64,000 bases of DNA from a virus (Duplodnaviria > Heunggongvirae > Uroviricota > Caudoviricetes), in IMG/VR virus record IMGVR_UViG_3300013121_000002, positions 43,976 to 107,975 of that record, one strand, 5' to 3'. The notes below the pieces were generated by a model. The model was not told the origin of the DNA. It searched no databases and was given only the letters and a program-made list of their open reading frames with translations. Positions 1 to 64,000 of the stretch are shown here, in pieces. Position numbers and translations under genes: made by a program. Each line of letters starts with the position of its first letter. Position 1 is the stretch's first letter.

Positions 1-3000
1 ATCAGCGTGCCCCGAGGCGTTGAACACCTCGCCACCAAGCCGCACCTCATACGGATCGTAGGTGACGCGAATTGTGTTGGGAGGGAAGTTCAGGTTCTCG
101 GCAGTGTCGTAGGCCACTGCCCAGACGATTGCTGCCCACTCAGCATCCCGCTTGGACGGGAACGGTCCAGCGTAGTCGTTACGATAATGAAGAAAGACCG
201 ATTCAGTGCTGTACGCGTCGATAGTGCCGCCGTTCGCCCGGAAGAACTCCAAGGAGTGCCGGTTGTCGAACACCGGCTTGGTTTCGCCGCCCGCGGGGCC
301 GAACGTGAACCGGCCGTTGGACGGGTCGTGGTTCGGGTTGAACTTGAACGCGTTGGTACTGGTCGGATCGAACCCACCATCATTGCGATCCGCCGACTTA
401 ATGTTGCGCGGATCGAATACGACGTAGGTCGGATGCTGTCCTGACGAAAAATCGTTAGCGACCACGCCGTCATAGCCCGAGCGACGCGCAGCATCCATGA
501 GCCGATTCCAGCGATTGCGCTCGGGATGCCTGAAATCAACATCCAGATTGTAGAGCGCCCCCGCATCCAGAAACTCAAAAATCGTCATCGGCTCGCCCGA
601 CTGCGGGTCGATCCAATCATCGTAGTTGGAAGCGAAGTCGTTCAAGAACTCGCGGTTCTCCTGCGCGTAAGGATCAGTCAGGTCGAGGAGCTTTTCGCTC
701 TTGAGGTAGAATGCCCTCGGTTCGGTGCCTGCCGCCGCGTAATAGGCCGCGTCCTCGCGGCTCGGCGTAAACCAATTGGAGCCCTCAGCAAAATCAGTGA
801 AATCTCCACCCTGCGCTTCACCCCGGTAGACGACAAGCGGATTGCCATTTGCATCCACCACCTTGCTGTTGCCGAACCACGCCTTGAAAGCAGCGCTGCT
901 GGTCACACCACCATCGCCAGCGGCGCTGCGTCCGTCCGCTGTCGCGAAGCGCCCGCGCTCGTCGTGATAGGGGTTGAACTTCGTGACCTCCTCGCCGTCC
1001 ACGAACAAGATAATGAAAACGGTCTGGTAGTCGGCCTTGCGCGCCCCGGCAGCGATGAGGTTGGACATATCCGGGCGCTGGTCGAGCGGGAACACCTCGG
1101 TGATCCACTCCGGGCGGATCGTGCCCTTGAAGCGGAACGCGTGCTGGCCCCCGGAAAGCTCATCCGCGCGAGCGCTCACACGCCACGCGTCCAGCGGAAT
1201 GCGCGCCTCGACGATGACCGGCTCGCTGTTCGACATCTCAGCCACGGCGGTCGCAAAGCGCGCGGCGTTGTTCCACGAGGTCGAGAGGAACACCGACGCC
1301 CGGCGCTCCTCGATCAGCGCCTCGCCCTCCTCCTCGTTCCCGATAACCTGCTGCCTGATCCACTCCTCGGGATCGGGGAAGCCGTTCTTGATCGCCCACT
1401 CGTCAGCGCCGGGTCCGCCCTTCGGCTTGATGCCGTTCGCCTTGATGCTGGCGACCGCCTTGGCGGCAGTGCCGTGCCAGAGCGTGAATGCCTGCGCGGC
1501 GTCGCCCTCGTGGCGCTCACCGTCAGCAACACCCGACCGGCCGTCCGCCGTGGCGAAGCGTCCGCGCTCATCGTGGTACGGGTTGAATTTGGTTATGACC
1601 CAATCACCAGCGCTCTTGTCGAACGTCATTTCCATGCTGGCGGTCTGATCTCCCCTACGCGGGAAGGCGATGGTGTCCACCTCGTGCCCCGGCACAAAAT
1701 CAAAGCCGAACCGCTGGTACACCGGGTAGGAACCGCCAATCGCAAACAGCTTCACACGCTCGACCCCGCGCGCCCGCAATCTGCCGAGAGCCCTACGCAT
1801 CAGCGCCTGCCCGGCACCCGGCGACACAGACCCCAGATAATCAATTGATGCAGTGCGCCCATCAATCGATGCAGATAGGGCAGCAGTCACACTCGCCGGA
1901 TCATCACTGTCGTAGAACGCAAACAACTCCCCGTTGGAGTGAGACAGCGATCCACGATCTTGAGCGACGACGTTTTCCAGCATCGCCAAGCTGGCACGGT
2001 GGCGATCCAGCCGCTCCCACTCCGCGTTAACAATATCCTGCTTGCGGTCGGTCCCGACCCACTCAAACCGACGACGCTCCTTGAACGCCTCGAACTCCTT
2101 TTCCGCTTGACGGTATTCGTTACTGAAACGCTCGTAGAGATCGTCAAGCTGCTCCTCGGTGAAGGGCGATCTGAAAATGCCACCACCATCCGCAGCCGCA
2201 CTACGCCCGCCCGGAGCTTCGGAGAACCGTCCGCGCTCGTCATGGTAGGGATTGAACTTGGTGAGGTCGGGGTCATTCGGATCGAACGTGCCCCGGTTGC
2301 CGATAGCCGATTTGATTTGCGTCGGCTCCAGCGCGACCCACACCGTCTGGTTGGCAAGCTCACGCGACGAGTCACGCCCCTGCCGGAACACGATGCCGTC
2401 GTAGCCCTCCGAGGCCAGCCACGCCCGAAGCTCTCCGGTCGAGCCCCTGCCGATTGGGCGCAGCCAAGTACCGGCCGTACCCTCGGGATCACGGCCAGCC
2501 GTCGAGTGCATCATGCTAATAAATTCGTCGAAATCGGCAGGCTCCCACGGGTTCTGGATCGACAGGAAGGCCGGGTACATTGTCCCGGTGCTGGCGTACA
2601 TGCCCGCGCCTTCCTTATCCGGCCGGTCGCTGAACCACGAGCCCACCGTATCCATGCCCTCGGGCCGACCGACCTGCGTGACCGAAGCCATGCGGTCGAA
2701 CACGGTGAAGTCGCCGAGCGCGCGGTCGCCCTCCTGCCAAACGTGCGTGTTGTGGTAGACGACGAGCGGGTTGCCCTCGGCGTCCACGACCTTGCTGTCC
2801 TTGAACCACGCCTTGAACTCGGGCGTCTGCACCTGTTCCCCACCACCGGCCGGGCTCCAGCGCCCGCGCTCGTCACGCGGCTGGTTGGGATCGTATTTGG
2901 TTACGCTGTCGTCCCAACCCCACTCTTGGAAGCTGTCGCCGGACGTAAACAATTCACGGGCAGGCACCTTGCGCACCGCAATGGCAAAGTTGCCTCCGAG

Positions 3001-10754: not shown

Positions 10755-11396
10755 TTAAACGAACAGGCCCTTGGGCGGTCGCCGGATCGGCGCGGACGGG
10801 ATGCGCCGGGTAATCGGATTGCCCTCGGCGTCGAACAGTTCCGCCTGATCGCCGAGGCTGATCCAGCCCGGAGCACCGCTGCGGGCGAACAGTTCGAGGT
10901 AGGGTCCGGGGACCAGTTCGACGATCCTGTCGCGCACCTCATCCGGCTTGCGGGAGTGCTCGCGCAGCGGCGAGACGATGAGGCGGCGGACGCTGGCGCT
11001 CTGACGCTCCGGGGAACCGCGCGTGGCGAGCAGGCAGAGTTCCGGGTTGGCTCTGGTCCAGTAGCCCATGCCGACGAAAAAGTCCGCGAGGTCGCGCGGC
11101 TTCTTGTTCAGCTTCACCCAATGGAACGCAATCGTCTTGTAAACGAAACCCCACGATGCGATCAGGTCGAACGCCTGCGGCAGGTGGGTATCCGGCACCC
11201 ACAGGAACAACACGCTGTCATCGAGCGCCATGTCGCCGACCGGGAGCGCCTTGATGTCGGCAAAGCTCATCGTGTCGTAGTGCGCCTGCGGGGCGCGGCC
11301 TTCACCGTCCTCGCTGTACGTCTCGAAATGCCACGGAGGATCGACCAACAGCGCCCCGGCTTTGACGCGGCGGCGTGCTAACGAAATGACGTTCAC
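10755..11396 (-). CDS. MT-A70-family N6-adenine DNA methyltransferase
   Basis: DPPW catalytic motif (LLVDPPWHF). LFLWV motif. REHSRKPDE motif, typical of phage Dam/MT-A70 methylases. Confidence 0.8.
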   Translation of the reverse strand: MNVISLARRRVKAGALLVDPPWHFETYSEDGEGRAPQAHYDTMSFADIKALPVGDMALDDSVLFLWVPDTHLPQAFDLIASWGFVYKTIAFHWVKLNKKPRDLADFFVGMGYWTRANPELCLLATRGSPERQSASVRRLIVSPLREHSRKPDEVRDRIVELVPGPYLELFARSGAPGWISLGDQAELFDAEGNPITRRIPSAPIRRPPKGLFV

Positions 11397-11713: not shown

Positions 11714-11788
11714 CCATTCTCCTCACCCTACCACCTAACTACCCCCCGCAGAAGAAAAGGGGCAGCACGCGAACCAAACCACAAACCC

Positions 11789-16401: not shown

Positions 16402-16911
16402 TTAGCTCCCGACCGGCCGCGCCCAATTCTGGCCTAGCTGTATTTTAGAGATCATAGCCTGCGTCACACCAAACCGCTCTGCCAACTCGCGCTGGAAAAC
16501 CTTACCACGCAGCAAACGAATTTGACAAACATCAGTCTCGGTTAGCTTAGCGTTACCGTTTAGCTCACCTCGCCCAAGAGTTCCATGCAGGCCCCGATCA
16601 GCATGGTTTTCTTTTGAGGTTGCCCAACGCAGATGCCACGGATTCACACAACCAGCAGCACCACGTCCACAGCTATGAGCCGCCTGATGCTTCGGCATCG
16701 GTGGTTCGCCATGAACCGAAATGCAAACGAGACGATGAACGTACTTCATCATCCCAGCGACCTTCAATACCCCGTAACCCTTCACACGCGCAAACGGCCA
16801 GATCAGGCAGTCATCCCCCTGATAAGGAAGCACCACCGTTTGGAAGTAATGATTACGCGCCGACTTCCTAGCCACCTTCAACCTATTCGTATTTAGGACG
16901 CGGTGGAGCAA
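16402..16911 (-). CDS. HNH homing-type endonuclease with a C-terminal HTH
   Basis: CLIW...GYG...HRLVC...AAHSCGRGAAGCVNPWHLRWATSKENHADR. HTH GNAKLTETDVCQIRLLRG...FGVTQAMISKI. Confidence 0.85.
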   Translation of the reverse strand: MLHRVLNTNRLKVARKSARNHYFQTVVLPYQGDDCLIWPFARVKGYGVLKVAGMMKYVHRLVCISVHGEPPMPKHQAAHSCGRGAAGCVNPWHLRWATSKENHADRGLHGTLGRGELNGNAKLTETDVCQIRLLRGKVFQRELAERFGVTQAMISKIQLGQNWARPVGS

Positions 16912-17944
16912 ACGCTAACGAAATGCTATCCCACACCGCTGTCGTCACAACGTGTACCCGCTCCAATTCCGCATTACGTTCAGGGCCGGATGGCATCTCG
17001 TCGAGCTTCTTGATGAACGCATCAACCTTGGCTTCGGTCAGCCCCAAATCCTTGAGCCTACCCACGTCAGTCAGCCAATCAAGGCTGGCAACGTAGTCGT
17101 CTATGCCGTAAGCAAAACGAATGTTGAAGTCGCATTCAAGGAACGGCGTGTTGACCTTGTTCTTCTTCGCCTTGGCCTTGACCTGAATGCCGGTGACCCG
17201 CTTCACCTTGTTGATCGTCCGCGTCAACTGCTTGAGATGAGCCAGCCAGACAATATGCGTGGCGTAGAAATCAAGCGCCTTGCCGCCCGTCCGGGTGTGC
17301 TTCTCGCCCATCGTGAAGCCGATCTTGTCACGGACCTGCGAGATCACCATGACGTGAATTTTGGTCGCACCCAACTCGCGTATCAGCTTGCGAAACAATT
17401 CGCCCATCATCTTCGGCTTCTCACCGCCGAAGGTCGCCTCGCCAACCTTGCGCGCCATTTCCGCATCCGACGAAATGGCATCCAGCGAATCAATGATGTA
17501 GAGGCCGGGCTGACCCGATTCCTTGGCCTGTTCAATACAAGCCATCATGTCGTTGAACACATCCTCGACGGTATCCCACCGCGAGCCCACGCCCTCCGGG
17601 CCGAAGTCCACTCGATCCACTGGCAGACCGAGCGTAACGGCGTAGCCCTCATCGAACGCCGCTTCAGCTTCGCGATACCAGATATGCCCATCAGGAAACT
17701 GCCGGGCGAAGTTTGCCGTCGCTTCGATGGCGAGGAGTGTCTTGCCGCTCGAACGGTCACCGACGATGTTCGAGACGCGACCAAGCGGCCAACCACCGCC
17801 GAGGACACAATCGAGCAGGGTGCATCCGGTGCGAATGAATTGCAGCGGCTCCTGCTTGAAATAGATCGGAACCAGCTTCTCCTCTGGCTCCTCGACCGCC
17901 ACCTTCTTGCGCGCCACCATCAATGTCCCCTGACTGCAAACCAA
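16883..17944 (-). CDS. RecA-superfamily recombination ATPase (Sak4/RadA/KaiC-like)
   Basis: Walker A VGDRSSGKTLLA. Walker B LYIIDSLDAI. RecA-fold L2-like region. Confidence 0.75.
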   Translation of the reverse strand: MVCSQGTLMVARKKVAVEEPEEKLVPIYFKQEPLQFIRTGCTLLDCVLGGGWPLGRVSNIVGDRSSGKTLLAIEATANFARQFPDGHIWYREAEAAFDEGYAVTLGLPVDRVDFGPEGVGSRWDTVEDVFNDMMACIEQAKESGQPGLYIIDSLDAISSDAEMARKVGEATFGGEKPKMMGELFRKLIRELGATKIHVMVISQVRDKIGFTMGEKHTRTGGKALDFYATHIVWLAHLKQLTRTINKVKRVTGIQVKAKAKKNKVNTPFLECDFNIRFAYGIDDYVASLDWLTDVGRLKDLGLTEAKVDAFIKKLDEMPSGPERNAELERVHVVTTAVWDSISLAFAPPRPKYE

Positions 17945-25030: not shown

Positions 25031-26113
25031 TTAGCGACCGCTGGTAGCGACCTCGATGTGGCCGTTGTGACGGAACCACCAGAGAAACTGCCGCGAAACA
25101 CCACTCGCGAGCGCGTCGCTCACCTTCATGCCCTTGCGGAGCTTCGCGAACTCGTTGAAGCGATCCGAGCCGTCGCGATACGGATTTCCCTTCACGACGA
25201 TCTTGAGCTTCGCGTTGTCCGGGAAGTCGGTCGCCTTCCGTCCGCGCTTGCCGCCAGTCGGCAACGCCGTTGCAGCCTTGCGGGCCGGGGCCTTCGCAAC
25301 AGCAGCCGCCTTGCCGCGGGCCGGGGCCTTCGCAGCGGCCTTCGCAGGGGCCTTCGCCGCAGCCTTGCCGCGGGCCGGGGCCTTCGCAGCAGCAGCAGCC
25401 TTGCCGCGGGCCGGGGCCTTCGCGGCGGCCTTCGCAGGAACCTTCGCAGCAGCCTTCGCCGGGGCCTTCGCAGCGGCCTTCGCAGGAGCCTTCGCAGCGG
25501 CGGCCTTGCCACGGGCCGGGGCCTTCGCGGCGGCAGCAGCCTTGCCGCGGGCCGGGGCCTTCGCGGCGGCAGCAGCCTTGCCACGGGCCGGGGCCTTCGC
25601 AGCGGCCTTCGCGGCGGCCTTCGCAGGGGCCTTCGGTGCAGCAGGGGCCTTCGGTGCAGCAGCCTTCGCAGCCCGCGGAGCACGCTTCGGGGCCGTCGTC
25701 TCGACCTCCGTAGTCACAGTCGCATCCATAGTTCCAACTCCTTCTGCGGACGATCCAGCATCAGCATCGACCGCGGTTACATCATCAGCACCACCTCCCG
25801 TCTCCTCGACTTCAGCAGCACCAGTTTCCTGCCCGGCATCGCCGGGCTCGTCAGCAACGATCCGCCCGGAACCAACAGGCACCTCGTCGGGGAAAGCCGG
25901 AAGCGGCGTATTCCCGGACGACTTCTTGTTGTCCTCGACCACGTCTGTCGCCGCATTCAACCACTCCTGCGCCTCGCGGCTCAGTGTTTTCCATGCGTCG
26001 TCGTCGATGATCTGACCTGCGCTGAAAATGCGGAGCTTCAACGCCTGATCCGTCTCCCCGTCCTTGCGCTCAATCTTGAGCTTCGACAGGAACTCACCAA
26101 GCAAAGCACTCAT
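25031..26113 (-). CDS. Histone H1-like / AlgP-like Ala-Lys repeat DNA-binding protein with globular N- and C-terminal domains
   Basis: The central ~140 aa are made of KAAAKAPARGKAAAAA-type repeats. The C-terminal part KLKIVVKGNPYRDGSDRFNEFAKLRKGMKVSDALASG is globular. Confidence 0.6.
   Translation of the reverse strand: MSALLGEFLSKLKIERKDGETDQALKLRIFSAGQIIDDDAWKTLSREAQEWLNAATDVVEDNKKSSGNTPLPAFPDEVPVGSGRIVADEPGDAGQETGAAEVEETGGGADDVTAVDADAGSSAEGVGTMDATVTTEVETTAPKRAPRAAKAAAPKAPAAPKAPAKAAAKAAAKAPARGKAAAAAKAPARGKAAAAAKAPARGKAAAAKAPAKAAAKAPAKAAAKVPAKAAAKAPARGKAAAAAKAPARGKAAAKAPAKAAAKAPARGKAAAVAKAPARKAATALPTGGKRGRKATDFPDNAKLKIVVKGNPYRDGSDRFNEFAKLRKGMKVSDALASGVSRQFLWWFRHNGHIEVATSGR
25260..25690. repeat. 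Coding tandem repeats (Ala/Lys-rich, about 36-48-bp units)
   Basis: Repeated gccttcgcagcggccttcgcaggggccttcgc-like units. Confidence 0.65.
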
Positions 26114-30313: not shown

Positions 30314-30517
30314 CGCCTGCTCCCCTGATCCATGAAGGACGACAGTGGTAGCACAACGCCGAATGAAAAAAGAAGGCCCCCCGGATGCCCTCGCGGGGAG
30401 CCTTCACTTTTGCCCACCTATCACATACCCCAGCCGGTGGCCTCCGGGGCAGAGCGTGCCACACTAGTGAGTGGCACACCCTATGTGGTGATGACGCTAA
30501 CGAATGCAAGAGGGAGA

Positions 30518-30548
30518 CATAACGAAACGGGGAGGCTTTCGCCTCCCC
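30518..30548 (-). terminator. Terminator-like conserved hairpin module (type 1, copy 0)
   Basis: GGGGAGGC-GAAA-GCCUCCCC followed by GUUUCGUUAUGU on the minus strand. Lies in the leader of the DnaB gene. Confidence 0.45.
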
Positions 30549-30632
30549 GCTCGACCATGCCCCACCTTGGCTCACCGCACCGGACCCGGCCGCGCCACAC
30601 CTCGGCTTGCCTTGCCACACCTCGAAAATTGA

Positions 30633-31332: not shown

Positions 31333-31364
31333 AATCAAATGGAGTGTTCGTTAGCGTTTGTCAA
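31333..31364 (-). promoter_or_regulatory. Promoter-like TTGACA-N17-CATTTG element directly downstream of the terminator
   Basis: Minus-strand reading: TTGACAaacgctaacgaacactcCATTTG. Confidence 0.3.
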
Positions 31365-31646: not shown

Positions 31647-31678
31647 ACCAAATGGATGCTTCGTTAGCGTTTGTCAAC
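31647..31678 (-). promoter_or_regulatory. Promoter-like TTGACA-N17-CATTTG element
   Basis: Minus strand: TTGACAaacgctaacgaagcatcCATTTG. Confidence 0.3.
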
Positions 31679-31784: not shown

Positions 31785-31817
31785 CTCAAATGGATGGTTC
31801 GTTAGCGGTTTGTCAAC
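31785..31817 (-). promoter_or_regulatory. Promoter-like TTGACA-N17-CATTTG element
   Basis: Minus strand: TTGACAaaccgctaacgaaccatcCATTTG. Confidence 0.3.
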
Positions 31818-32831: not shown

Positions 32832-32877
32832 CTATTGATTTCCCTATACAGGTTACGCCATATGACGAACTGCTAAC

Positions 32878-32962: not shown

Positions 32963-32982
32963 AACAAGAAAGGAGCCACTAG

Positions 32983-35084: not shown

Positions 35085-35275
35085 CTAGCCACACATCCCG
35101 TTCGAGCCGCGCTGGCCCCATGCGATGTCGGTGAGGTCGCCGACCGGCACCAACGGCACGAGGTCGGCGCACTCGACGGCAATCATTTCCGGCACGCCTA
35201 GCTCAAGATCGGGCTCCGGGGCAAAGTACCAATCGTCGTCAGCACCCCAATGGTTCCAGTGATCCAGATCGGTCA
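35085..35275 (-). CDS. Small acidic Trp-rich protein (start MTDLDHWNHW)
   Basis: RBS GGAGCTAACGAAATG. The track ORF 35085..35387 extends upstream, but the N-terminal part is unlikely. Confidence 0.4.
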
Positions 35276-35280
35276 TTTCG

Positions 35281-35520
35281 TTAGCTCCTTGAGTGCTGCC
35301 TGATCCATTCCTTGGCGGCCACCGGGTCAGCAACCACCGCGACAACTCGTTGGGGCGGAATCTTGGCACGGATGGCGATCCTACCATCAGGCTGCTTCTC
35401 CGTCAGGAACCAGCGGTGCTCCTTCGCCATCCGCTGCATTTCGTTATCTTCCCGCTGCCGGTGTTTCTGTTCCAGCGGCTGCATCTTCCGTGCTCGACGC
35501 TTGCTAATGATCTGCGACAA
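35281..35520 (-). CDS. Hypothetical basic protein
   Basis: 79-aa ORF, Arg/Gln-rich. Confidence 0.4.
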   Translation of the reverse strand: MSQIISKRRARKMQPLEQKHRQREDNEMQRMAKEHRWFLTEKQPDGRIAIRAKIPPQRVVAVVADPVAAKEWIRQHSRS

Positions 35521-37181: not shown

Positions 37182-38000
37182 TTGAAGTTCGACAACTCCC
37201 TGTTCCTGACCCGCGAGGTCGAACGTGACCTCCTCGTGCGCGCCAAGGCAGGAGATCGGGCGGCGCGCGACCGGCTGGTTCTCGCCCATCGGCCGCAGGT
37301 GATTGGCGCGGCGCGCAAGTTTGCCCGCGTCTACCCCACCATCGACATCGACGATCTCATATCCGAGGGGAACATCGGGTTGATGGCGGCGATCCGGTCA
37401 TTCGACATGGAACAGACCGTGCGCTTCGCGACCTACGCCGTGTACCACATCGGCAACCGGGTCCGGGATTTCATCCTCCGCAACGCAGCGCACGGCGTCA
37501 GCTTCGCGGGCACCACGGCGACGCGGGCGCTGTTTTTCAAATCGCGGATGCTGCTGATGAATGAGTCGGCATCGGGTCGGCCGCTCGCTGAGCAATATCA
37601 GCGGGTCGCTAACAAGCTCGGCGTCACGGTGCGACAGCTAACCGACTTCCTGAACTTCGGCACGTCGTCGCTCGACGCCCCACCACCGGGTGGCACCGGG
37701 GAAGCTGCTCTTTCCTCGGTCGGTGAACTGCTCGTCGATGCAACGGCACCCGACCCGGAGGAGCACACTGACGAGAGCCAGCGGGCGAAGCTGTTGCACG
37801 ACGCTCTGAACCGGCTGGAGCCGCGCGACCGGCTGGTGCTGATCTCGCGCTTCATGAACAACGAGACGCTGGAAGGTGCCGCCGCCACCCTGAAGGTGAC
37901 GCGCGAACGCGTGCGCCAGATCGAGAGTCGGGCACTGCGGCGACTGAAGGATTTGCTGATTGATTTGCAGCCGGAACCGGAACGCACCGCGGCCGAATAA
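37182..38000 (+). CDS. Sigma-70 family RNA polymerase sigma factor
   Basis: Region 2: DDLISEGNIGLMAAIRSFD. Region 4 HTH: TLEGAAATLKVTRERVRQIESRALRRLK. Confidence 0.8.
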   Translation: MKFDNSLFLTREVERDLLVRAKAGDRAARDRLVLAHRPQVIGAARKFARVYPTIDIDDLISEGNIGLMAAIRSFDMEQTVRFATYAVYHIGNRVRDFILRNAAHGVSFAGTTATRALFFKSRMLLMNESASGRPLAEQYQRVANKLGVTVRQLTDFLNFGTSSLDAPPPGGTGEAALSSVGELLVDATAPDPEEHTDESQRAKLLHDALNRLEPRDRLVLISRFMNNETLEGAAATLKVTRERVRQIESRALRRLKDLLIDLQPEPERTAAE

Positions 38001-43626: not shown

Positions 43627-43739
43627 ACGATTACGGTGGTCCTCGATTAGGCAGAGGGGCAACGTCCACTTCACGTCCAGCGGGTAGCTCCAGCGATGGG
43701 GCGGACCCGGTAGCCAATGCGAAAGGACGCCACTAACGA

Positions 43740-44330
43740 AATAAGCTCAGCCTTGTCGTGAATTTGAGTTGCGAACGTGGGGGTTCAAATCCTCCCTCCC
43801 CGACCATGACGGGGAGTGCCGGAACGGTAGACGGGAGTCCCTTCGGGACTTGTTCGCTTCAAACTAAATCTATTCACGCAAGTTGAGCATTGCCGCGCCG
43901 ATCCTATCGAGGTGCGTCGGGTTCCAATTGAGAGGCGCTGGTTCAAATCCAGCCGCGCCCGCCATGTGGGGCGCGTGGTCCAGCGGAAGGGCGCTCAACA
44001 TGAAACTGATCCGACGTATTAAACGCCGAGGGTTGGGAGAAGTCGCGGTACAAGCCCCGGCAGTCTAGGCTAGTGCTGCCGGGGCACCTATCCCAGAGGT
44101 TCCAGCTTGGGGAACGGATCAGCGGCCAAGAGGTTCAAAGGCCACGGACCTGCGGGTAGCTCGACGGAGCAAAACCTGCCAACGCTGATCCAGCAATTCG
44201 TGCTCGGAGAATAGATCACCGGGGACCGAGAGGGGGTCCGCCACCTCCTGTAGAACAGCCCGGTGCAGCTTACGCCTGTCTGCACCGAGCCAAAGCCTAC
44301 CTCCCGGTGATCCCTATCAAGGGATAATCA
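43740..44330 (+). ncRNA. ORF-free region with tRNA-like fragments: two T-arm + 3' acceptor + CCA elements, each immediately followed by its complementary 5' acceptor strand (permuted tRNA-like/Y-RNA-like modules), plus a strong 10-bp hairpin
   Basis: GGGGGUUCAAAUCCUCC-CUCCCCG-A-CCA-uga-CGGGGAG at ~43768-43806. GCUGGUUCAAAUCCAGC-CGCGCCC-G-CCA-ugu-GGGCGCG at ~43925-43967. D-loop-like AACGGUAGA/AGCGG follows each. Hairpin GCCCCGGCAG/CUGCCGGGGC at ~44043-44073. Confidence 0.35.
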
Positions 44331-44331
44331 A

Positions 44332-44556: not shown

Positions 44557-44834
44557 CCGTTCGGCTCGGGATCGAACGTCTCGATGGTGAAGGCGGTGAG
44601 CGGCCGGTTCGGTTTCCCATCAGGGCGGCGCGGCCGAACGGTACTGGTCTGCTGCCAGCACGCCATCGCCGACGCCACATCCGGGAAGCGCATCGCCTCG
44701 GACAGATTGTCGGTGGCGTGAACGTCGCCGAGCCCGCCGTGGCCGTCCGGGTCGTAGCTCTTGAGGTAGAGCCCGTCGAACTCCGGCATCCGGTGGCCGC
44801 TGGCAAGCTCGATCAGTTTGATTACGCGGGTCAT
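44553..44834 (-). CDS. Hypothetical protein (start MTRVIKLIELASGH)
   Basis: RBS GGAAACGAAAACAAAATG. ATGA overlap with the upstream gene. The track ORF 44553..44942 has a doubtful Arg-rich N-terminal extension. Confidence 0.4.
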   Translation of the reverse strand: MTRVIKLIELASGHRMPEFDGLYLKSYDPDGHGGLGDVHATDNLSEAMRFPDVASAMACWQQTSTVRPRRPDGKPNRPLTAFTIETFDPEPNG

Positions 44835-45202
44835 TTTGTTTTCGTTTCCTTTCCCATGAGGATCGCCTGCGCCCGCTCGATGTCGGCGGCCGTCAGGCCG
44901 GGCGGCGGGGTGCCGGTGAGGTGGAACCGCAGGTCGCGCCACATCTTGGCGACGGCGGTTTCCTCGGCAAGGGCTTCACGCGAGAGGTAGTAGCGGATTG
45001 GCGGCGTGAAGTCGTTCACCGGCCGGGGCCGTAAAGTTTCGATGTCCACACCGCCGTAGACGCGCCTATTCTCGACCAGCGCAACCTCTGCCCAACGCCG
45101 ACCGATCTTGGTGACGACCACATCCACAGGAAGCCGGGCAGCGCCGTAATGATTGTTGATGGCGACGAGGGTCTGCCCGATGTGTGTGATTACCTTGGTC
45201 AT
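44831..45202 (-). CDS. Hypothetical protein
   Basis: 123-aa ORF. RBS GGAGTAAACGAAAATG. Confidence 0.45.
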   Translation of the reverse strand: MTKVITHIGQTLVAINNHYGAARLPVDVVVTKIGRRWAEVALVENRRVYGGVDIETLRPRPVNDFTPPIRYYLSREALAEETAVAKMWRDLRFHLTGTPPPGLTAADIERAQAILMGKETKTK

Positions 45203-45699: not shown

Positions 45700-45784
45700 T
45701 TGGTTTCCCTCCTACAGGAACCGCGTTGCGATGCAAATGAAATGGGGAGCCCGGCTCCCCATTTCAAGTCCTAATCGTTACGTT

Positions 45785-46325: not shown

Positions 46326-46601
46326 TTATATTTCGTTACGCGTTTTGTCGAGGTCGTACAGCGCCTGCCGGATAACCAAATCCTTGGCGTCAAAACCGTA
46401 GTGCTTTTCCAACAGCAGCGCCATCGTCGGCGATACGGCCGAGTGCTTGTTGAGAACCCGTGACAGTGCCGGGCGCGTGACGCCCAGCTTGTCGGCGACT
46501 GCTGCAATCGACGCTGTGCGGTTGCGGTTCGGGCCGACGACGAAAATTATACCGCTTGCCACGAGGATACCGCGCACATAGTTGCCGGGGTGCTGCGTCA
46601 T
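46326..46601 (-). CDS. higA: HigA-like antitoxin (XRE-family HTH)
   Basis: MTQHPGNYVRGILV...IAAVADKLGVTRPALSRVLNKHSAVSPTMALLLEKHYGFDAKDLVIRQALYDL matches the HigA pattern HPGE.L....L...GLS...LA..LGV....IS.I.NG.R. Confidence 0.55.
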   Translation of the reverse strand: MTQHPGNYVRGILVASGIIFVVGPNRNRTASIAAVADKLGVTRPALSRVLNKHSAVSPTMALLLEKHYGFDAKDLVIRQALYDLDKTRNEI

Positions 46602-48370: not shown

Positions 48371-48643
48371 TTCGTTTCCCTCCTACAGGAACCGTATTGT
48401 GATGCGTTACAGATAACGACCCTTCAGCAGCGGTGCAAGGGGTGCCAAACGAAAATATTCAAGAAGGGTGGCCGGTCGCCAAAAATCGACACCTGTTCCA
48501 GCGTCCCGTTCTACCGCGATTTCGTTAGCTGCACAAGCCGAAACGTAACGATTACGAAAAAATTGGTGCAGCCCCTTGCGCGCGAGCGTTAGCGGGACCA
48601 TCTTTCAATTGTTAGCAACACACCCTGTAGGAGGGGTACGCAG

Positions 48644-49027: not shown

Positions 49028-49169
49028 GAGCCTCCGGGGCGGTCCTCACGGGCCGCCCCAAATTCGTTAGCAACACCACTTGCGCTCGCTAACGAATTGC
49101 GCTACCTAGACGGACAATGGAACAGGCGTGAATTTTTTAGCGATTTGTCCCTGTAGGAGGGGAACGACC

Positions 49170-49607
49170 ATGAAGCTCGACGTGTCCGAAGCTGGTCCGC
49201 TCAGGGACAAGCTCAAGGCGGCTTTCCAACCGCTCGTCTCGATGCTCCGCATCCCGCGCAACGACAAGCTGGTCAAGGTCAGCTACCGCAAGGGGCGCTT
49301 CCCGCTCGATCACCCAGCCATCGGCGGCACGACCTGCGCGCCGAACCCCCGGCTGGTCAAGGTCGAACTGATCGACTGGAACCGCGAGGAGACGAACCCG
49401 ATCCTCAAGGTGTTCTGCCACGAGTTCGTTCATGTCGCTCAGGTCTGCCGCGGCGCGCTCGGGCATGGGCCGAACGGCACCTCGATCTGGTATGGCTCGA
49501 CCGTGCAAATGGTCGAGGGCGGCAGCCGGGGTTACCGCGAACTGCCGTGGGAGCAGGAGGCGTTCGCGCTTCAGGACATGCTCTACGACACCATCAAGCA
49601 CCTGTAG
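49170..49607 (+). CDS. Putative zinc metallopeptidase-like protein (HExxH)
   Basis: VFCHEFVHVAQ motif. Initiation motif GTAGGAGGGGAACGACCATG. The track ORF 49128..49607 starts earlier. Confidence 0.45.
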   Translation: MKLDVSEAGPLRDKLKAAFQPLVSMLRIPRNDKLVKVSYRKGRFPLDHPAIGGTTCAPNPRLVKVELIDWNREETNPILKVFCHEFVHVAQVCRGALGHGPNGTSIWYGSTVQMVEGGSRGYRELPWEQEAFALQDMLYDTIKHL

Positions 49608-50230: not shown

Positions 50231-50315
50231 CGACGCTGAAAATCGAAATCAAACCACTTGAAACGGATCGTGGCTGACCCCATTTCATTATCGTTCCTGT
50301 AGGAGGGAAACGAAA

Positions 50316-50525
50316 ATGGCAGTTAGCAAGGCACAGGTCATCCCCGGCTCGATCTTCGCCAAGGGTGGCAACTTCGCGGTCACGTCGCGCTGCGGCAGCA
50401 TCCTCGACACTACGGTGTTCGACACGCGCGACGAGGCTTGGGCTGAGTTCCAGCGGCGCGGTAGCGACCCAGCGCACAACGGGGTTAGCTTCACGGTCCA
50501 CCCCGGTTTGGTCGAGGAGGAGTAG
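50316..50525 (+). CDS. Hypothetical protein
   Basis: 69 aa. Initiation motif CCTGTAGGAGGGAAACGAAAATG. Confidence 0.45.
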   Translation: MAVSKAQVIPGSIFAKGGNFAVTSRCGSILDTTVFDTRDEAWAEFQRRGSDPAHNGVSFTVHPGLVEEE

Positions 50526-51421: not shown

Positions 51422-51486
51422 ACGCACCCCTTGACGAACGATAACGAAATACCCATTTATTAGTCGTCCGGTAGGAGGGACACAAA

Positions 51487-51666: not shown

Positions 51667-52014
51667 ATGACCTACTCCAAGCCACGCTACTACGACAACT
51701 ACACCATCGTGTTCCTGCCGTACCGGCTCGACGCCAACCACGTCGGCCAGCCGGACGCCAGCCGGGACGCCATCGTGTGGCGGGCCAACACCCCCAAGGG
51801 TGCCCTGCGCCGCCTCGGCAACGTCTTGGCGAATGTACGGACTGTCGGTCCCGGCTGGTTCGGGGTGATCCGCCCGGACGGCCTGTTCGTTAGCTACACT
51901 CAGCTACGGGACCAGATCGTCCATGACGCGGAGATCGCCCGGCGCATGGAGGCACGGGTCGTCGCCGAGTACGACGAGGACAACGACGACGCTCACCGGG
52001 GAGTTTCACTGTGA
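51667..52014 (+). CDS. Hypothetical protein
   Basis: 115 aa. Confidence 0.5.
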   Translation: MTYSKPRYYDNYTIVFLPYRLDANHVGQPDASRDAIVWRANTPKGALRRLGNVLANVRTVGPGWFGVIRPDGLFVSYTQLRDQIVHDAEIARRMEARVVAEYDEDNDDAHRGVSL

Positions 52015-52292: not shown

Positions 52293-52452
52293 CCCCCCTC
52301 CTACACTAGGGGTCAGATCGGTAAGCGCCGGGGTAGTAGGGGCAACCCTCCCCCGGCGCACTCATTTTCGTTAGCGTTCCACCTTGCAAACGAAATCAAA
52401 CGACATTATCTCATGGTCATCGAAACACGGTTCCTGTAGGAGGGAAACGACC

Positions 52453-52653
52453 ATGGGAAAGAACGGACCTAACAAGACGGTCGCGGAGTTCCGGCGCAAG
52501 GCTGGCCCGTCGCCACAGGCGGTCGAGGCGCGCAACCGCCGCCTCGGGGTCGGCCCGGCAGCCGAGGTGATGGAGCGCGTCTCCAAGGGCGAACTGACGC
52601 CCGCCGAGGGTGCCATGCTGGTCGCCGCGCTGGTTGCGAACAGGGAGGTCTAA
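52453..52653 (+). CDS. Hypothetical protein
   Basis: Initiation motif CCTGTAGGAGGGAAACGACCATG. The track ORF starts earlier, at 52384. Confidence 0.45.
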   Translation: MGKNGPNKTVAEFRRKAGPSPQAVEARNRRLGVGPAAEVMERVSKGELTPAEGAMLVAALVANREV

Positions 52654-52657: not shown

Positions 52658-53164
52658 ATGACGACCGCCCACGATCCGCACCAGTTCCAGAGCGCCACGG
52701 ACGCGCTCGACTTCATTCTCGCCGGGAATGCGTATTTCACGCTGCGGTCGCTCAAGACCGGCAAGCGGTACACCTACCGTGTCGCGGTCGCCAAGGACTC
52801 GCGCGATACCCCAACCCCGCTCCATTTCGTTAGCGTCCTGACCGGCCCTGACAACAGCAGCGACTACACCTACATCGGCACCATCCGGGACAGGACGTTC
52901 CGGTGGGGCAAGCGGGGTGGCCTCGATGCCAAGGCTCCCTCGGTGCAGGCCATCGAGTGGGCGCTGGCGCAGCTTGTCGCCGGGCGGCTGCCGACCTCCC
53001 TTGAAGTCTGGCATCAGGGCCGCTGCGGGCGCTGCGGGCGGCTCCTGACGGTGCCAGAGAGCATCGACCGGGGCCTCGGGCCGGAGTGCGCCGGAAAGAG
53101 CACCTTCGCCGCTACAGCGGTGTTTGCCCCGGCCAGCAGCGACGCCGAGGCTGGCACACCATGA
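52658..53164 (+). CDS. DUF6011-like zinc-binding protein
   Basis: C-terminal HQGRCGRCGRLLTVPESIDRGLGPECAGK matches the CxxCGRxLTxPxSxxxGxGPxC motif. Confidence 0.5.
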   Translation: MTTAHDPHQFQSATDALDFILAGNAYFTLRSLKTGKRYTYRVAVAKDSRDTPTPLHFVSVLTGPDNSSDYTYIGTIRDRTFRWGKRGGLDAKAPSVQAIEWALAQLVAGRLPTSLEVWHQGRCGRCGRLLTVPESIDRGLGPECAGKSTFAATAVFAPASSDAEAGTP

Positions 53165-57525: not shown

Positions 57526-57630
57526 ATTTTTCCGTTATCGTTGTCAGATTTCGTTTGCAAACGATAATGAACCGACCTATGTAGGTGTTACCGGGATGAC
57601 CCGGCAACGATTTGTAGGAGAATCAATCCC

Positions 57631-58914: not shown

Positions 58915-59235
58915 ATGTCGGCCTCCATCACCAAATTGACCACCGTGCCCTCGGCGACGGAAACCTACGTCCCCCTCGACCGGCCACAGCGTCCAGTGAT
59001 CGTCGATCTCGCCCGGCTCGACGGTATCGAGGGAGTGCGGATCGTCAGCGACCAGATCGGGCACTGGATCAAGAAAGACCCGAAGCACAATCGTCTCGGC
59101 ACGCTCGCGCGCCGCGCCAACCTCGGCAATTCGACCGTGTCGAAAATCTACAGCCGCGAGACGTTCTCGCCGCGGATGACGACCCTCATGTATATCCTCC
59201 GGGCGCTCGGCTTCTCGGCCGTCCGGTTCGAGTAG
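58915..59235 (+). CDS. XRE-like HTH protein
   Basis: LGTLARRANLGNSTVSKIYSRE...TLMYILRALG. Confidence 0.5.
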   Translation: MSASITKLTTVPSATETYVPLDRPQRPVIVDLARLDGIEGVRIVSDQIGHWIKKDPKHNRLGTLARRANLGNSTVSKIYSRETFSPRMTTLMYILRALGFSAVRFE

Positions 59236-61409: not shown

Positions 61410-61504
61410 CAAAAAGGGGAGGGTTTCGACCCTCCCCACTTGCTAATGAATTGACCCCGCCTATATGGTGGTGATGACAACCCGGTAGGAGGGGTTTCAT
61501 TACC

Positions 61505-62545
61505 ATGACTGTCCGTACCAAGTGGCACCGCCTGCGCGAACTGCTCGCCTCGGGTGAGGTTTACACCCCGGCCCCGATTGGCGGAAAGGCTGAGCATTTC
61601 AGCGAAAACGAAATCGCTGTCGATCAGGTGCGCGCGTTCTATGAGAACTGTTCGTCTCTGCCGAAGTTCGTCATTGACAACGACGCGCTCGACCTTGTCC
61701 TGAGCAGCGAGGGTCAACTGTCCATCCTCGACATGCAGCGCGCTGGCGTGCTGCGGCTGCCCTTTCCAGCCATGATCGTCGAGATACCAGTACCGCAGGC
61801 CAAGCAACATTTGATTTGCGTGCTTCGCGACGTGCGCGCCACCTCGGCCGACATTCCTTGGATTGAGGAAGGCGATCCGCCCGAGTTCGAGTTCTATGGC
61901 ATCCCGGCGCTCATCCACAACGATGACGATGGTGACTACGTCGTCATATCGCCATCAGTGCTGTACGCGTCGATCAGCAAGGTGACGGTTGAGGAGGCAA
62001 TAAATGAAATGCGAAAGCCCGACGCCAACATCGCTGGTGTGCGCTACCTGAACGACAGCGAACGCGCTGAAGCTCTGCACGAGATCACTGGTCCGCAGGC
62101 GTGGCTACGCTTTCTCGCGTCACCGCTAGTCTGGCTACCGCATAACGCGGCTGGTGATCGCCTGATCGGACAGACCTACGAGAAGTCGGCGCATAGCGTC
62201 GGCAGGGCACTGTTCGCCGCGCTGCTGCTGATGATGACCCGCGGCATGGAACGCGAGGTGATCGAGGTCGAGCGCCTGAACAAGCAACGGATCAAGCACA
62301 ACAAAATGCCGATCCCGAGCCACACCTACATTCGGATCGGGCACGTCTACCAGTCGGACGGATCGTCCCGGCAGTACGACGAGCGCAAGAGCCCTCGGCC
62401 GCACTGGCGGCGCGGTCACATCCGCAACTACCGCACCAAGGGCGGCGGCACGCGCCCGCGCTACATCCCGCCGATGCTGGTCGCCTACCATGGCGACGAC
62501 ATCGCTAACGAATTGATCGTCCCGGACTACGTTGTCAAAAAGTAG
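61505..62545 (+). CDS. Hypothetical protein
   Basis: 346 aa. Initiation motif CCGGTAGGAGGGGTTTCATTACCATG. Confidence 0.5.
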   Translation: MTVRTKWHRLRELLASGEVYTPAPIGGKAEHFSENEIAVDQVRAFYENCSSLPKFVIDNDALDLVLSSEGQLSILDMQRAGVLRLPFPAMIVEIPVPQAKQHLICVLRDVRATSADIPWIEEGDPPEFEFYGIPALIHNDDDGDYVVISPSVLYASISKVTVEEAINEMRKPDANIAGVRYLNDSERAEALHEITGPQAWLRFLASPLVWLPHNAAGDRLIGQTYEKSAHSVGRALFAALLLMMTRGMEREVIEVERLNKQRIKHNKMPIPSHTYIRIGHVYQSDGSSRQYDERKSPRPHWRRGHIRNYRTKGGGTRPRYIPPMLVAYHGDDIANELIVPDYVVKK

Positions 62546-63049: not shown

Positions 63050-63074
63050 TACCTGACCCTCTTGACCGCACTAA

Positions 63075-63680
63075 CGAACGCGTCTATCTAGCCGCCAGCC
63101 TCTGGTGTAGAGCACGGTTACTTCACACTTCCAATGTGACCAACGACCGGGTTCGTTATTTCCGAGGCGACCATCATTCCCGCAGGTCGCGGGGAGCGTC
63201 TGGTGTTCGAGCACGGCTACTTCGATTGATAATCGAGAGGTTGTTGGTTCGATCCCAATCAGGCCCCGCAAGGGACTTGTAGCTCAACTGGTAGAGCACT
63301 AAGCCGGGTTCAGCTTTCTTCCGGCGCTCCACCCCGACCTGCGGGAGTGTGTGGTGTGAGGGAGTTGGTGTTAGGTTACGGTTACTTCGGATGAAAGCTA
63401 CGGGCTCTTAACCCGTTCGCTCCATGGTGGTTCAAATCCACCAAACCGGAACCGCCTTTTCCACTCCCTCGCTCCACACACGCAGATCAATTCGAGTGGC
63501 GCGTACCCTCTGGTGCAGATCACGGGTACTTCGCCTCTGGAGCGGGAGGTCGTTGGTTCGAATCCAACCGGGTCCACCATTCTACGGGCCTGTAGCTCAG
63601 CGGTTAGAGCGCCTAACGTAACCGGGATCGTCCTTTCCGAGGATACGCCCCACTCGAATTGATTTGCATTGGCCGCCCCT
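63075..63680 (+). ncRNA. Cluster of tRNA-like / Y-RNA-like (YrlA-type) structured RNAs upstream of a Ro60-like gene
   Basis: Canonical D-arms: GTAGCTCAACTGGTAGAGC at ~63280, GTAGCTCAGCGGTTAGAGC at ~63598. T-arms with encoded CCA: GTTGGTTCGAATCCAACCGGGTCCACCA at ~63560; GGTGGTTCAAATCCACC at ~63427; GTTGGTTCGATCCCAAT at ~63244. None assembles into a colinear canonical tRNA. A tCTGGTGyAGAgCACGGyTACTTCG module repeats four times. Confidence 0.45.
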
Positions 63681-63683
63681 GCT

Positions 63684-63709
63684 CCTACATCCAGAGGTGT
63701 AGGTTTTTT
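63684..63709 (+). terminator. Rho-independent terminator
   Basis: CCUACA-UCCAGAGG-UGUAGG followed by UUUUUU. Confidence 0.55.
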
Positions 63710-63726: not shown

Positions 63727-64000
63727 ATGCGTACCAACCGCTCAAGCACTGCTCCTGCGCCGCGCACCCACGAGGGTGCGGTCGCTTCGCGAATCAACGC
63801 CGAGGCTCAGCTTCGACGCTCCGTGATGTCGTGCCTCCTGTGGGAGGACGAGTTCTATGAGTCTGGCGAGGAGATCGCCAAGCGCATTGCCCGCCTCGTC
63901 GGCGAGGTGAAGCCCGAGATCGTTAGCGCCATCGCTATCGAGGCGCGGTCGGACGGCAACCTCCGTCACGTCCCGCTCCTGCTCGCGCGCACGCTGGCGC
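63727..64000 (+). CDS. rsr: Ro60/TROVE-domain (Rsr-like) protein, N-terminal part; continues beyond the window
   Basis: MRTNRSSTAPAPRTHEGAVASRINAEAQLRRSVMSCLLWEDEFYESGEEIAKRIARLVGEVKPEIVSAIAIEARSDGNLRHVPLLLARTLA matches the TROVE N-terminal pattern (LRRFL.LGSEGGTYY...E..A...ALFALA). Confidence 0.55.
   Translation, partial: MRTNRSSTAPAPRTHEGAVASRINAEAQLRRSVMSCLLWEDEFYESGEEIAKRIARLVGEVKPEIVSAIAIEARSDGNLRHVPLLLARTLA

Follow-up and report, generated by a model that had tools for sequence, protein, structure and literature searches.

A recurrent 9-mer in a tailed-phage genome as a candidate operator for a putative phage regulator

The window analysed here, a 64,000-nt stretch of phage DNA, contains a 9-mer, TTCGTTAGC/GCTAACGAA, that recurs far more often than expected, which raises the questions of whether its copies share one function and, if so, what reads them.

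Abundance and placement of the 9-mer

There are 15 exact copies of the word in the window. On the plus strand, TTCGTTAGC is found at positions 28229, 31347, 31660, 31798, 35277, 48521, 49063, 51886, 52367 and 52826, and GCTAACGAA at 11377, 16914, 30496, 49088 and 62504. The initial annotation, which listed about 14 copies and claimed strong over-representation, gave positions that hold to within a few bases and a total that does not, the copy at 30496 having been overlooked. The claim itself is borne out, with 15 copies against 0.3-0.5 expected from shuffles and Markov models. Dinucleotide-shuffled windows average 0.26 copies and never contain more than 2, and the k-mer statistics against a Markov background, proposed earlier as the check, show significant enrichment under orders 0-3 (0.28-0.52 expected, Poisson p from 1e-17 to 1e-21); models of order 5 or higher incorporate the motif itself and are of no use here. 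With up to one mismatch allowed, there are 59 copies compared to 10.1 expected. Although the window is 61% GC, this AT-rich word is within roughly the top five 9-mers by frequency. The extended consensus is roughly (C)ATTTCGTTAGC(G). Another enriched k-mer, GCGAAGGCCCC, merely reflects a peptide repeat within the gene 25031-26113. A literature search for the 9-mer returned primers only.

Some of the copies are paralogous, namely three copies in a small-RNA-like array and the pair 48521/49088; once these are collapsed, about 12 independent copies remain (p about 5e-13). The flanks of most copy pairs show no relationship, so duplication fails to account for the count.

Part of the signal stems from a shorter core, AACGAA/TTTCGTT, which had previously been missed. 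AACGAA is the favoured spacer of this phage between the ribosome-binding site and ATG (CCTGTAGGAGGGaAACGAAATG), and AACGAAATG precedes about 15 start codons, whereas the reverse of the core, TTTCGTT, is the usual terminator tail and follows at least six terminator hairpins. TAACGAA is enriched ninefold (40 copies against 4.3 expected), and 15 of these 40 copies carry the GC prefix, compared to a background of 11% (p = 2e-5). The GC-prefixed 9-mer is thus an entity distinct from TAACGAA; the core is a separate, overlapping habit of the genome that raises the background against which the 9-mer stands out.

Non-coding DNA, which makes up 13.6% of the window, is touched by nine of the 15 copies (p = 4e-5), or by six of 12 when paralogues are collapsed (p = 0.003), and 12 of the 15 copies are intergenic or no more than about 50 nt from the start of a gene. 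The two clusters, at 30.5-31.8 kb and 48.5-52.9 kb, coincide with the two stretches densest in promoters. With respect to transcription, seven copies are sense and seven antisense; this lack of strand bias fits a reader of duplex DNA and does not fit an RNA or single-strand signal. Three copies are located deep within genes and have no promoter context. At two coding copies the motif is kept at the cost of TTA, the rarest leucine codon (25 of 1550).

Copies at promoter-like sequences and elsewhere

The following copies, exact or with mismatches, lie at promoter-like sequences. The -35/-10 assignments were made by eye from matches to consensus, complemented by two tool hits, so that all of these promoters are predictions from sequence only.

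31347..31355, minus strand: array promoter 1 (predicted), GCTAACGAA in the spacer of TTGACA-aac-GCTAACGAA-cac-TCCATTTG (31364-31336)
31660..31668, minus strand: array promoter 2, arranged as at 31347, promoter 31677-31649
31798..31806, minus strand: array promoter 3, arranged as at 31347 with one extra base after the -35, promoter 31816-31787
32134-32105: degenerate fourth array copy, CTTAACGAT
30496..30504, minus strand: TTCGTTAGC on the transcribed strand, 21 nt past the minus-strand terminator 30552-30525, upstream of a DnaB-like gene; possibly within the spacer of a weak CTTGCA-N17-CACATA
48521..48529, minus strand: GCTAACGAA, 1 nt past the -35 of the leftward promoter-like TTGTGC-N17-TAGAAC (48536-48508)
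49063..49096, plus strand: perfect inverted pair TTCGTTAGC-N16-GCTAACGAA bracketing the -35 of the promoter-like TTGCGC-N17-TACCTA (49080-49108)
51440..51448, plus strand: one-mismatch GATAACGAA, 3 nt past the -35 of the sigma-32-like CTTGACG-N14-ACCCATTT (51431-51459)
52367..52394, plus strand: inverted pair TTCGTTAGC-N10-GCAAACGAA around and over the -35 of the predicted TTGCAA-N17-TATCTC (52384-52412)
57550..57565, no strand assigned: TTCGTTTGCAAACGAT, a palindrome of two one-mismatch half-sites that abut and fill the spacer of TTGTCA-N16-GATAAT; promoter 57541-57568 called by a promoter tool
61442..61450, plus strand: one-mismatch GCTAATGAA overlapping the -35 of CTTGCT-N16-CTATAT (61439-61466), upstream of the gene 61505-62545
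63070..63078, plus strand: one-mismatch ACTAACGAA in the spacer of CTTGAC-N17-CTATCT (63061-63089), before a tRNA-like region

Several of these sites have neighbours of their own. Array promoter 31364-31336 is upstream of the gene 30633-31268, with a minus-strand terminator just upstream. The inverted pair 49063..49096 is upstream of the gene 49170-49607; its right arm is in the spacer, 2 nt past the -35, and its left arm starts 3 nt after a terminator hairpin and ends 8 nt before the -35. The 48521 site shares about 50 nt of flank with its paralogue at 49088. The pair 52367..52394 is upstream of the gene 52453-52653 and its left arm follows a terminator hairpin, and the 61442 copy is directly downstream of a terminator.

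The initial annotation had correctly put the word between the -35 and the -10 of the array promoters, which are on the minus strand; the 11-bp inverted repeat it reported, AATTCGTTAGC-N16-GCTAACGAATT, is exact, at 49061-49098. More generally, GCTAACGAA with at most one mismatch is found 1-4 nt downstream of TTGNNN, pointing downstream, at eight of the 59 sites (3.3 expected), an association that is statistically modest when the three array copies are collapsed. Seven of the eight sites lie in intergenic DNA, and in these a -10-like element follows 5-7 nt beyond the motif. Two promoter types are represented, a sigma-32-like TTGAC(A/G)-N14-(C/T)CCATTT and a sigma-70-like TTGNNN-N17-TA(C/T)CT(A/C). 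At three further promoter-like sites, an inverted or palindromic copy of the motif flanks or fills the -35/-10 region. We infer that the hexamers are real promoters. A general promoter scan of 44-64 kb gave no enrichment, with three promoters found compared to 4.7 in shuffles.

The remaining exact copies are the following.

11377..11385, minus strand: CATTTCGTTAGC, codons 4-7 of the MT-A70 methyltransferase gene (10755-11396), with a rare TTA codon
16914..16922, minus strand: CATTTCGTTAGCG, 3' end of a RecA-like gene (16883-17920), with a rare TTA codon
28229..28237, plus strand: deep within the minus-strand SNF2-like gene 27244-28818, antisense, without promoter-like context
35277..35285, minus strand: GCTAACGAA abutting the ATG of a small ORF, 35085-35276, with a positive coding score
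51886..51894, plus strand: within the gene 51667-52014, sense, read as Phe-Val-Ser
52826..52834, plus strand: CATTTCGTTAGCG within the gene 52658-53164, sense
62504..62512, minus strand: GCTAACGAA on the plus strand, 3' end of the gene 61505-62545, next start codon 50 nt on

The 11377 copy is at the junction of the MT-A70 gene with the gene upstream of it, and the 16914 copy is about 45 nt upstream of an ORF that appears, from reading its translation rather than from a family search, to encode an HNH endonuclease-like protein. The TAA of the 35277 copy is the stop codon of the ORF 35281-35520, and this copy belongs to the translation-initiation class. A position between the Shine-Dalgarno sequence and ATG, also claimed previously, holds for this one exact copy and for several one-mismatch copies.

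Competing readings of the word

The word does not behave as a component of the promoter itself. Around the 15 copies there is no conserved partner at -35 or -10 distance, and two perfect sigma-32-type promoters (45740-45768 and 50257-50285) have no 9-mer, so the word is no general component of promoters. We accordingly rejected a -10 or -35 core element of the phage sigma factor, for which a partner at 16-18 bp is lacking and the best sigma-32-type promoters are without the word. Also rejected were a promoter of leaderless mRNAs, since the word is too near the ATG, and starts of small antisense genes, given their negative coding scores. There is no match to the usual consensus sequences of host LexA, CtrA, DnaA, sigma-54 or IHF sites, and these were likewise rejected.

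The 9-mer might have no single function and instead be a composite of unrelated AT-rich signals with the common core AACGAA/TTTCGTT: pre-ATG spacers, stop-to-start junctions (TAA-CGAA-ATG), terminator tails and promoter spacers, together with regulatory cassettes copied between intergenic regions in the manner of the T4-type promoter-stem-loop cassettes. This would account for the core before start codons and after terminator hairpins, for the ninefold enrichment of TAACGAA on its own, for the paralogy of the array copies and the 48521/49088 pair, and for the exact copy at 35277, which is simply a gene junction. It accounts poorly for the GC prefix, which is far above what the core alone predicts (p = 2e-5), for the mostly unrelated flanks, and for the persistence of the word within genes despite rare codons. 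Moreover, four GCTAACGAA(A)ATG copies are followed by no coding ORF and the coding scores there are strongly negative, so that start-codon context is no explanation for these. We consider such a composite rather unlikely as the full account. It is very unlikely that the word acts in RNA, through pairing of CAUUUCGUUAGC segments with GCUAACGAAAUG initiation regions of other transcripts, or, in variants of the same idea, as hairpins in read-through transcripts or through an RNA-binding protein such as the ProQ-C-like protein encoded at 44831-45202. The inverted pairs 49058-49101 and 52360-52398 do fold more stably than shuffled sequences (z = -3.9 and -4.5), but such stability comes automatically with any inverted repeat, and the array copies fold no better than shuffles; the four non-start CATTTCGTTAGC copies are all sense-oriented, but no strand bias is seen overall, and several copies fall in the gaps that separate a terminator from the following start site, in which RNA should be scarce. 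Modification of the word by a phage methyltransferase, or some other base modification, with promoter enrichment reflecting epigenetic control, seems just as improbable. Two methyltransferase-like genes are present, and either the MT-A70 protein (10755-11396) or the second protein (33463-34740) would be a candidate enzyme, but the only link is the copy that occupies codons 4-7 of the MT-A70 gene, right at its start. Methyltransferases seldom target fully specified, asymmetric, non-palindromic 9-bp words, one would not ordinarily expect their targets to be over-represented or to cluster in promoter spacers, and the phage MT-A70-type adenine methylases studied so far tend towards low specificity. 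The initial annotation had offered a regulator binding site or a methylation target; non-coding concentration, lack of strand bias and overlap with promoter cores agree with the former, and nothing positive supports the latter.

The phage also encodes an RfaH-like elongation factor (36268-36795), whose best NCBIfam and PDB match is RfaH, ahead of NusG, and TTCGTTAGCG(T) on the non-template strand might conceivably be an ops-like loading site for this factor, improbable as we judge this to be; the loaded factor would then carry polymerase through terminators, which is no less doubtful. Slightly more remote is the notion that the sense-oriented copies (TTCGTTAGCGT at 16914, 30496, 52367, 52826 and others) represent an ops-type signal that has diverged and at which the factor is loaded repeatedly along the genome. 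Three sense-oriented copies of the TTCGTTAGCGT type directly follow terminator hairpins. Escherichia coli ops is GGCGGTAGCGTG, and RfaH recruitment needs the C3:G8 pair and the flipped-out T6 (PMC5995543). The motif matches GGCGGTAGCGTG at C3, G4, T6, A7, G8 and C9, and thus at all of these bases, six of the 15 copies also have G10 and T11, and seven of the ten transcribed copies are in the ops-like orientation; canonical ops with up to one mismatch is absent from the window. A six-of-nine match, however, has a chance probability of roughly 0.1 by our own estimate, and the seven sense and seven antisense copies do not follow a strand rule. Five exact copies are in promoter spacers, upstream of predicted start sites and in the wrong orientation; the pause consensus is absent, and G5, which the protein reads along with T6 and which is essential in E. 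coli (G5A abolishes recruitment), is replaced by T. The ops-contact residues of the phage factor (Q, N, R, Q, F) are those of Bradyrhizobium-type homologues, which adjoin canonical ops TGCGGTAGCGTG (L115:10580, L116:10608), so that a changed specificity towards T5 is not indicated. A better candidate, GGTGGTAGGGTG at 11724-11735, is in the sense orientation in the 420-nt leader that precedes the packaging and structural genes, and the terminator 11713-11681 comes after it within the same leader. If an ops-like reading were right, it would mean that a private code for loading a NusG paralogue can evolve in phages, and, for the diverged signal, that this phage has its own specialised NusG paralogue and a private recruitment code.

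A putative regulator and the known phage systems

Our preferred reading, held tentatively although it may well be correct, is that the 9-mer is a double-stranded operator for a putative phage DNA-binding regulator. The word would be a cis-regulatory element read in duplex DNA by a sequence-specific protein, most likely one encoded by the phage. A protein bound there would collide with RNA polymerase, either in the spacer just past the -35 or at an inverted pair bracketing the -35, and because of this position the most likely action would be repression or timing, exerted on early and middle promoters and on the small-RNA-like array at 31.3-32.2 kb. Copies within genes and at gene junctions would be secondary sites. 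The spacings of paired copies vary (overlapping, N10, N11 and N16), which a simple dimer would not tolerate. Helix-turn-helix proteins encoded nearby provide two candidate binders.

46326..46601, minus strand: helix-turn-helix protein of 91 aa (Xre/HigA-like), encoded in the leftward early operon, candidate by inference only
58915-59235: second, weaker candidate (HTH_26)

In this analysis, no evidence links either of these proteins to the 9-mer. A phage-specific operator-like motif is, by itself, a common kind of finding. The word nevertheless provides an experimental handle on the timing of the phage genes, as it marks most early promoters and could serve as bait for the regulator and help to chart its regulon.

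The genome looks lytic and encodes replication machinery and a sigma factor of its own, and its transcription toolkit comprises an RpoH-like sigma factor, the RfaH-like elongation factor and the ProQ-like protein. It belongs to a lineage without close relatives in the collections searched, and none of the related genomes in these collections contains the 9-mer. In particular, megablast of 30-36 kb against phage records gave no match, and PolA relatives, none with the 9-mer, are at most 36% identical among isolates, while those in IMG/VR do not exceed 53% over their full length, with short partial matches reaching 68%. Relatives of the 30633-31268 protein are numerous, only 58-74% identical, and come from unrelated genomes without the word. 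The next-best sigma factor is 37% identical, and an RfaH-like protein with 80% identity is known only from a 1-kb contig. Scans of viral and metagenome contigs for the 9-mer gave only chance single-copy matches, and an Rfam search found only a tRNA.

Among known systems, the ops element of RfaH resembles the word in CG-TAGC(GT), with a C:G pair closing a 4-base loop and T at the flipped-out position, and in the presence of an RfaH-like gene in the genome; it differs in that the phage word follows no strand rule, has G5 replaced, lacks the pause consensus and is found in many copies upstream of start sites. The start-associated sequences of cluster K mycobacteriophages and the T4-type promoter-stem-loop cassettes (PeSLs) are other recurring words and cassettes. 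They parallel the conserved words before many start codons (here CCTGTAGGAGGGaAACGAAATG) and the repeated intergenic terminator-promoter cassettes, and thus cover the AACGAA core and the paralogous copies, in contrast to the GC-prefixed 9-mer at unrelated sites and within genes. The MotA box of T4 middle promoters is a 9-bp asymmetric word that takes the place of the -35, with its centre near -30, is combined with a sigma-70 -10 and is recognised by a phage protein working with the host polymerase. The 9-mer is likewise an asymmetric 9-bp word with a fixed orientation and a near-fixed place upstream of the -10 in many promoters, but here a good -35 is present (TTGNNN, 1-4 nt upstream) and the word is in the spacer, at about -27 to -19 with its centre near -23; no relative of MotA or AsiA was seen among the scanned proteins. 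Stoperators of cluster A mycobacteriophages, read by the L5 gp71 repressor, are 13 bp long, have one orientation with respect to transcription and belong to temperate phages with an immunity repressor. By comparison, the word described here is 9-12 bp and has no orientation bias, and no repressor or integrase was recognised among about 90 of the 102 predicted proteins scanned against family libraries. Like the stoperators, it is a short asymmetric word dispersed in many copies, tens in number, that is enriched in intergenic regions, concentrates at gene boundaries and in some copies overlaps an early promoter.

Enrichment and placement of the 9-mer

The asymmetric 9-base word (hereafter the 9-mer) is represented by 15 exact copies on the two strands of the window, compared with 0.26 expected from dinucleotide shuffles and 0.28-0.52 under Markov models of orders 0-3, which confirms the enrichment claimed in the initial annotation; with at most one mismatch, 59 copies are found versus 10 expected. 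The list of copies in that annotation was correct overall, with one copy (30496) missed and coordinates slightly shifted, and the 11-bp inverted repeat (49061-49098) is indeed exact. In ungapped comparison, shared flanks are confined to the three copies in the minus-strand array of repeated units (31347, 31660 and 31798) and the two palindrome arms, and the copies at 48521 and 49088, read in one direction, have about 50 nt of gapped flank in common. There are therefore about 12 independent copies, for which the enrichment is still significant (p ~5e-13), and the motif is genuine and far from random.

Non-coding DNA, which accounts for 13.6% of the window, is touched by 9 of the 15 exact copies (p = 4e-5), in agreement with the earlier observation that several are intergenic; four further copies coincide with a gene start or precede one by no more than about 50 nt, and three lie deep within genes. 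In two coding copies leucine is encoded by TTA, its rarest codon (25 of 1550), an indication of selection for the DNA word. Relative to transcription, seven copies are sense, seven are antisense and one is in a divergent region, without strand bias; clusters are found at 30.5-31.8 kb and 48.5-52.9 kb.

In an unbiased k-mer survey, the most enriched short words were TAACGAA (40 copies versus 4.3 expected), AACGAAAT (29 versus 2.4) and AACGAAATG (14 copies). This enrichment stems from the preference for AACGAA as the spacer between the RBS and the ATG, a role that it plays in about 15 genes in an alignment of the sequences preceding every predicted gene; the first genes of operons share the long upstream consensus CCTGTAGGAGGGaAACGAAATG, and at three gene junctions TAA-CGAA-ATG combines a stop with the next start. 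Examples of such start regions are:
48371-48392, minus strand
49148-49172
50294-50318
52431-52455

In the opposite strand, the usual terminator tail is TTTCGTT, e.g., GAGCGGGGAGGCGAAAGCCTCCCC-GTTTCGTTTGT. A GC prefix is present in 15 of the 40 TAACGAA copies, compared with 11% expected (p = 2e-5), and the GC-prefixed 9-mer is a separate entity within the core background, with a tendency towards the longer form (C)ATTTCGTTAGC(G). GCTAACGAA is directly followed by ATG in five exact copies and by AATG in a sixth (52367). A gene starts at just one of these ATGs, and coding scores are strongly negative for the four other ORFs that were scored, so the CAT flank belongs to the DNA word and not to a start codon.

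The initiation word of operon-first genes, CCTGTAGGAGGG(a)AACGA(A/C)(A/C)ATG, is conserved, with AACGAA preferred before ATG elsewhere. The enriched k-mers GCGAAGGCCCCGGCC were rejected as a regulatory motif: their source is the Ala/Lys/Pro-rich tandem peptide repeat of a single minus-strand gene (25031-26113), which has a weak TolA-like match.

Genomic context, relatives and repeat elements

The window (61% G+C) looks like a portion of a large lytic phage. Minus-strand genes occupy the region from 31.3 kb to position 1, and two sets of small early-type genes point away from each other, one leftward starting at 48.4 kb and the other rightward starting at 48.6 kb.

Principal genes
31.3 kb to 1, minus strand: DnaB-like helicase, SNF2-like helicase, primase, family A polymerase with UDG domain, clamp loader, SSB-like protein, RecA-like protein, MT-A70 methyltransferase (10755-11396), large terminase, portal
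33463-34740: second methyltransferase-like gene
36268-36795, central block: RfaH-like factor
37182-38000, plus strand, central block: RpoH-like sigma factor

The exact window proteins occur once in a large protein collection, and the polymerase is only 33-36% identical to those of the nearest isolates (Edwardsiella phage ZHS and Vibrio MAR10-like phages). The host is probably an alphaproteobacterium of the Bradyrhizobium/Xanthobacteraceae kind, given that chromosomal proteins of these bacteria share 41-51% identity with the RfaH-like factor. No genome near enough for intergenic alignment was present in the collections searched, and motif-based scans for the 9-mer in other sequences returned chance matches only. 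The sole near relative, a 1-kb contig whose RfaH-like protein is 80% identical, contains a hairpin followed by TTTTCGTTAGG, which fits the use of the core as a terminator tail and says little on the 9-mer.

The array (31269-32273, minus strand) consists of four units, with a partial unit at 30520-30632. In each unit, a sigma-32-like promoter is followed by a G-rich tract with a GGT period of ~10 nt, then by the terminator GGGCGGTTGTCGAAAGGCAGCCGCCC-TTTTTATTA, a second GGT-periodic tract and the terminator GAGCGGGGAGGCGAAAGCCTCCCC-GTTTCGTTTGT. The array has the appearance of a set of small non-coding RNAs containing many Shine-Dalgarno-like words; an Rfam search of it gave no match, and a role as a decoy or R-loop origin is a guess. 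Two 47-bp direct repeats (32870-32965) in the space separating the divergent genes 32274-32831 and 32983-33453 each contain the inverted pair GCTAACC-N27-GGTTAGC; the half-site is one base off the 9-mer (GCTAACCAA), so a related regulator may use these repeats as its operator.

Several other elements were observed. The 747 nt at 35521-36267, upstream of the operon for the RfaH-like and sigma proteins, contain no convincing gene and include a strong hairpin (36091-36122). A minus-strand ORF with atypical codon usage (16402-16911), HNH homing endonuclease-like in a translation read by eye and assigned to no family in an NCBIfam scan, is inserted after the RecA-like gene, with an exact 9-mer copy about 45 nt upstream. 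The tRNA-like stretches GGTTCAAATCC, GGTTCGAATCC and GTAGCTCAACTGGTAGAGCA in 43627-44331 and 63090-63700 are possibly tRNA genes that are unusual or interrupted; ARAGORN and Rfam left them uncalled, calling only Asn (55019) and Gln (63503). Phages L113 (761-1909) and L094 (20342-21711), with polymerases 41-51% identical, carry long tandem arrays whose 36-37-bp units combine two invariant 8-mers with variable spacers, namely TGGTTCAC-N9-GGTTTGAC in L113 (at least 22 units) and AGTGTGCCa-N16-AACCCaa in L094.

The 9-mer in promoter-like sites

Two types of promoters, sigma-32-like and sigma-70-like, are predicted. The former fit the presence of the RpoH-like sigma gene, whose top models are sigma-32 with scores below cut-offs and whose nearest relative has 37% identity. 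The sigma-70-like sites, TTGNNN-N16/17-TA(C/T)CT(A/C) or CTATAT, were assigned by eye; a consensus scanner supports two of them (57541-57568 and 32134-32105).

Predicted sigma-32-like sites and sites with GCTAACGAA after the -35 hexamer
45740-45768, minus strand, intergenic: perfect sigma-32-like site, CTTGAAA-N14-CCCCATTT
50257-50285, plus strand, intergenic: perfect sigma-32-like site, CTTGAAA-N14-CCCCATTT
31.3-31.8 kb, minus strand, intergenic, three times in the array: variant TTGAC(A/G)-N14-(A/C)(C/T)CCATTT, with GCTAACGAA
51431-51459, intergenic: the same variant, with GCTAACGAA
49080-49108: promoter-like site with GCTAACGAA
48536-48508: promoter-like site with GCTAACGAA
63061-63089: promoter-like site with GCTAACGAA

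In the seven listed sites that carry it, GCTAACGAA (with at most one mismatch) points downstream and begins 1-4 nt past the -35 hexamer, including all three predicted array promoters, where the 9-mer had already been placed in the spacer. A -35 hexamer at such spacing accompanies 8 of the 59 copies with up to one mismatch (3.3 expected) and 5 of the 15 exact copies (0.8 expected), three of these five being paralogues. The inverted copies at 49063 and 52367 each end 8 nt before the -35 hexamer; at 57550, the spacer is filled by two abutting half-sites; and one-mismatch copies overlap the -35 hexamer at 61442 and 52386. Both perfect sigma-32-type promoters lack the 9-mer, which is thus an add-on, as operators are, and not a general promoter part. 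Paired copies overlap or are separated by N10, N11 or N16, and this variable spacing argues for recognition of single sites rather than for a rigid dimer.

Promoters of EcfG-like ECF-type sigma factors have the form GGAAC-N16-17-CGTT. Paralogous GGAAC-N16/17-CGA(T/C) elements that resemble them are located downstream of two 9-mer-bearing predicted promoters (49118-49144, plus strand, and 48503-48478, minus strand).

Possible functions of the 9-mer

The 9-mer could be an ops-like signal for the RfaH-like factor, whose match to RfaH is better than that to NusG: the extended word TTCGTTAGCGT agrees with the E. coli RfaH recruitment element ops, GGCGGTAGCGTG, at eight positions, among them the flipped-out T6 and the C3:G8 pair (PMC5995543). 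The equal numbers of sense and antisense copies, however, break the ops strand rule, five exact copies precede their own predicted start sites, the essential G5 is replaced by T, and the pause consensus is absent. Nor is there any indication of altered specificity in the phage factor, since its ops-contact residues (Q, N, R, Q, F) are identical to those of bacterial homologues encoded in polysaccharide loci and directly followed by TGCGGTAGCGTG, ops with one mismatch (L115:10580-10591 and L116:10608-10619). The window contains no ops with one mismatch or fewer; a much better candidate than the 9-mer is GGTGGTAGGGTG (11724-11735, minus strand), with a second GGTAG before it and an intrinsic terminator after it (11713-11681; GGCCGGGGCAT...ATGCCCCGGCC-TCATTTGATTT), all within the 420-nt leader of the packaging and structural genes, which continue to terminase and portal. 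This element is the likely target of the RfaH-like factor, and an ops role for the 9-mer appears improbable.

As a methyltransferase target, a word so long, asymmetric, over-represented and clustered at promoters would be atypical. One copy falls within codons 4-7 of the MT-A70 gene, and apart from it nothing links either enzyme to the word. The main rival, that the 9-mer is a composite of unrelated signals, seems rather unlikely to us. The best-supported mechanism, which we favor tentatively, is a duplex-DNA operator for a putative phage regulator that would act at the core of early and middle promoters. The motif itself is a new instance of a familiar sort of phage feature.
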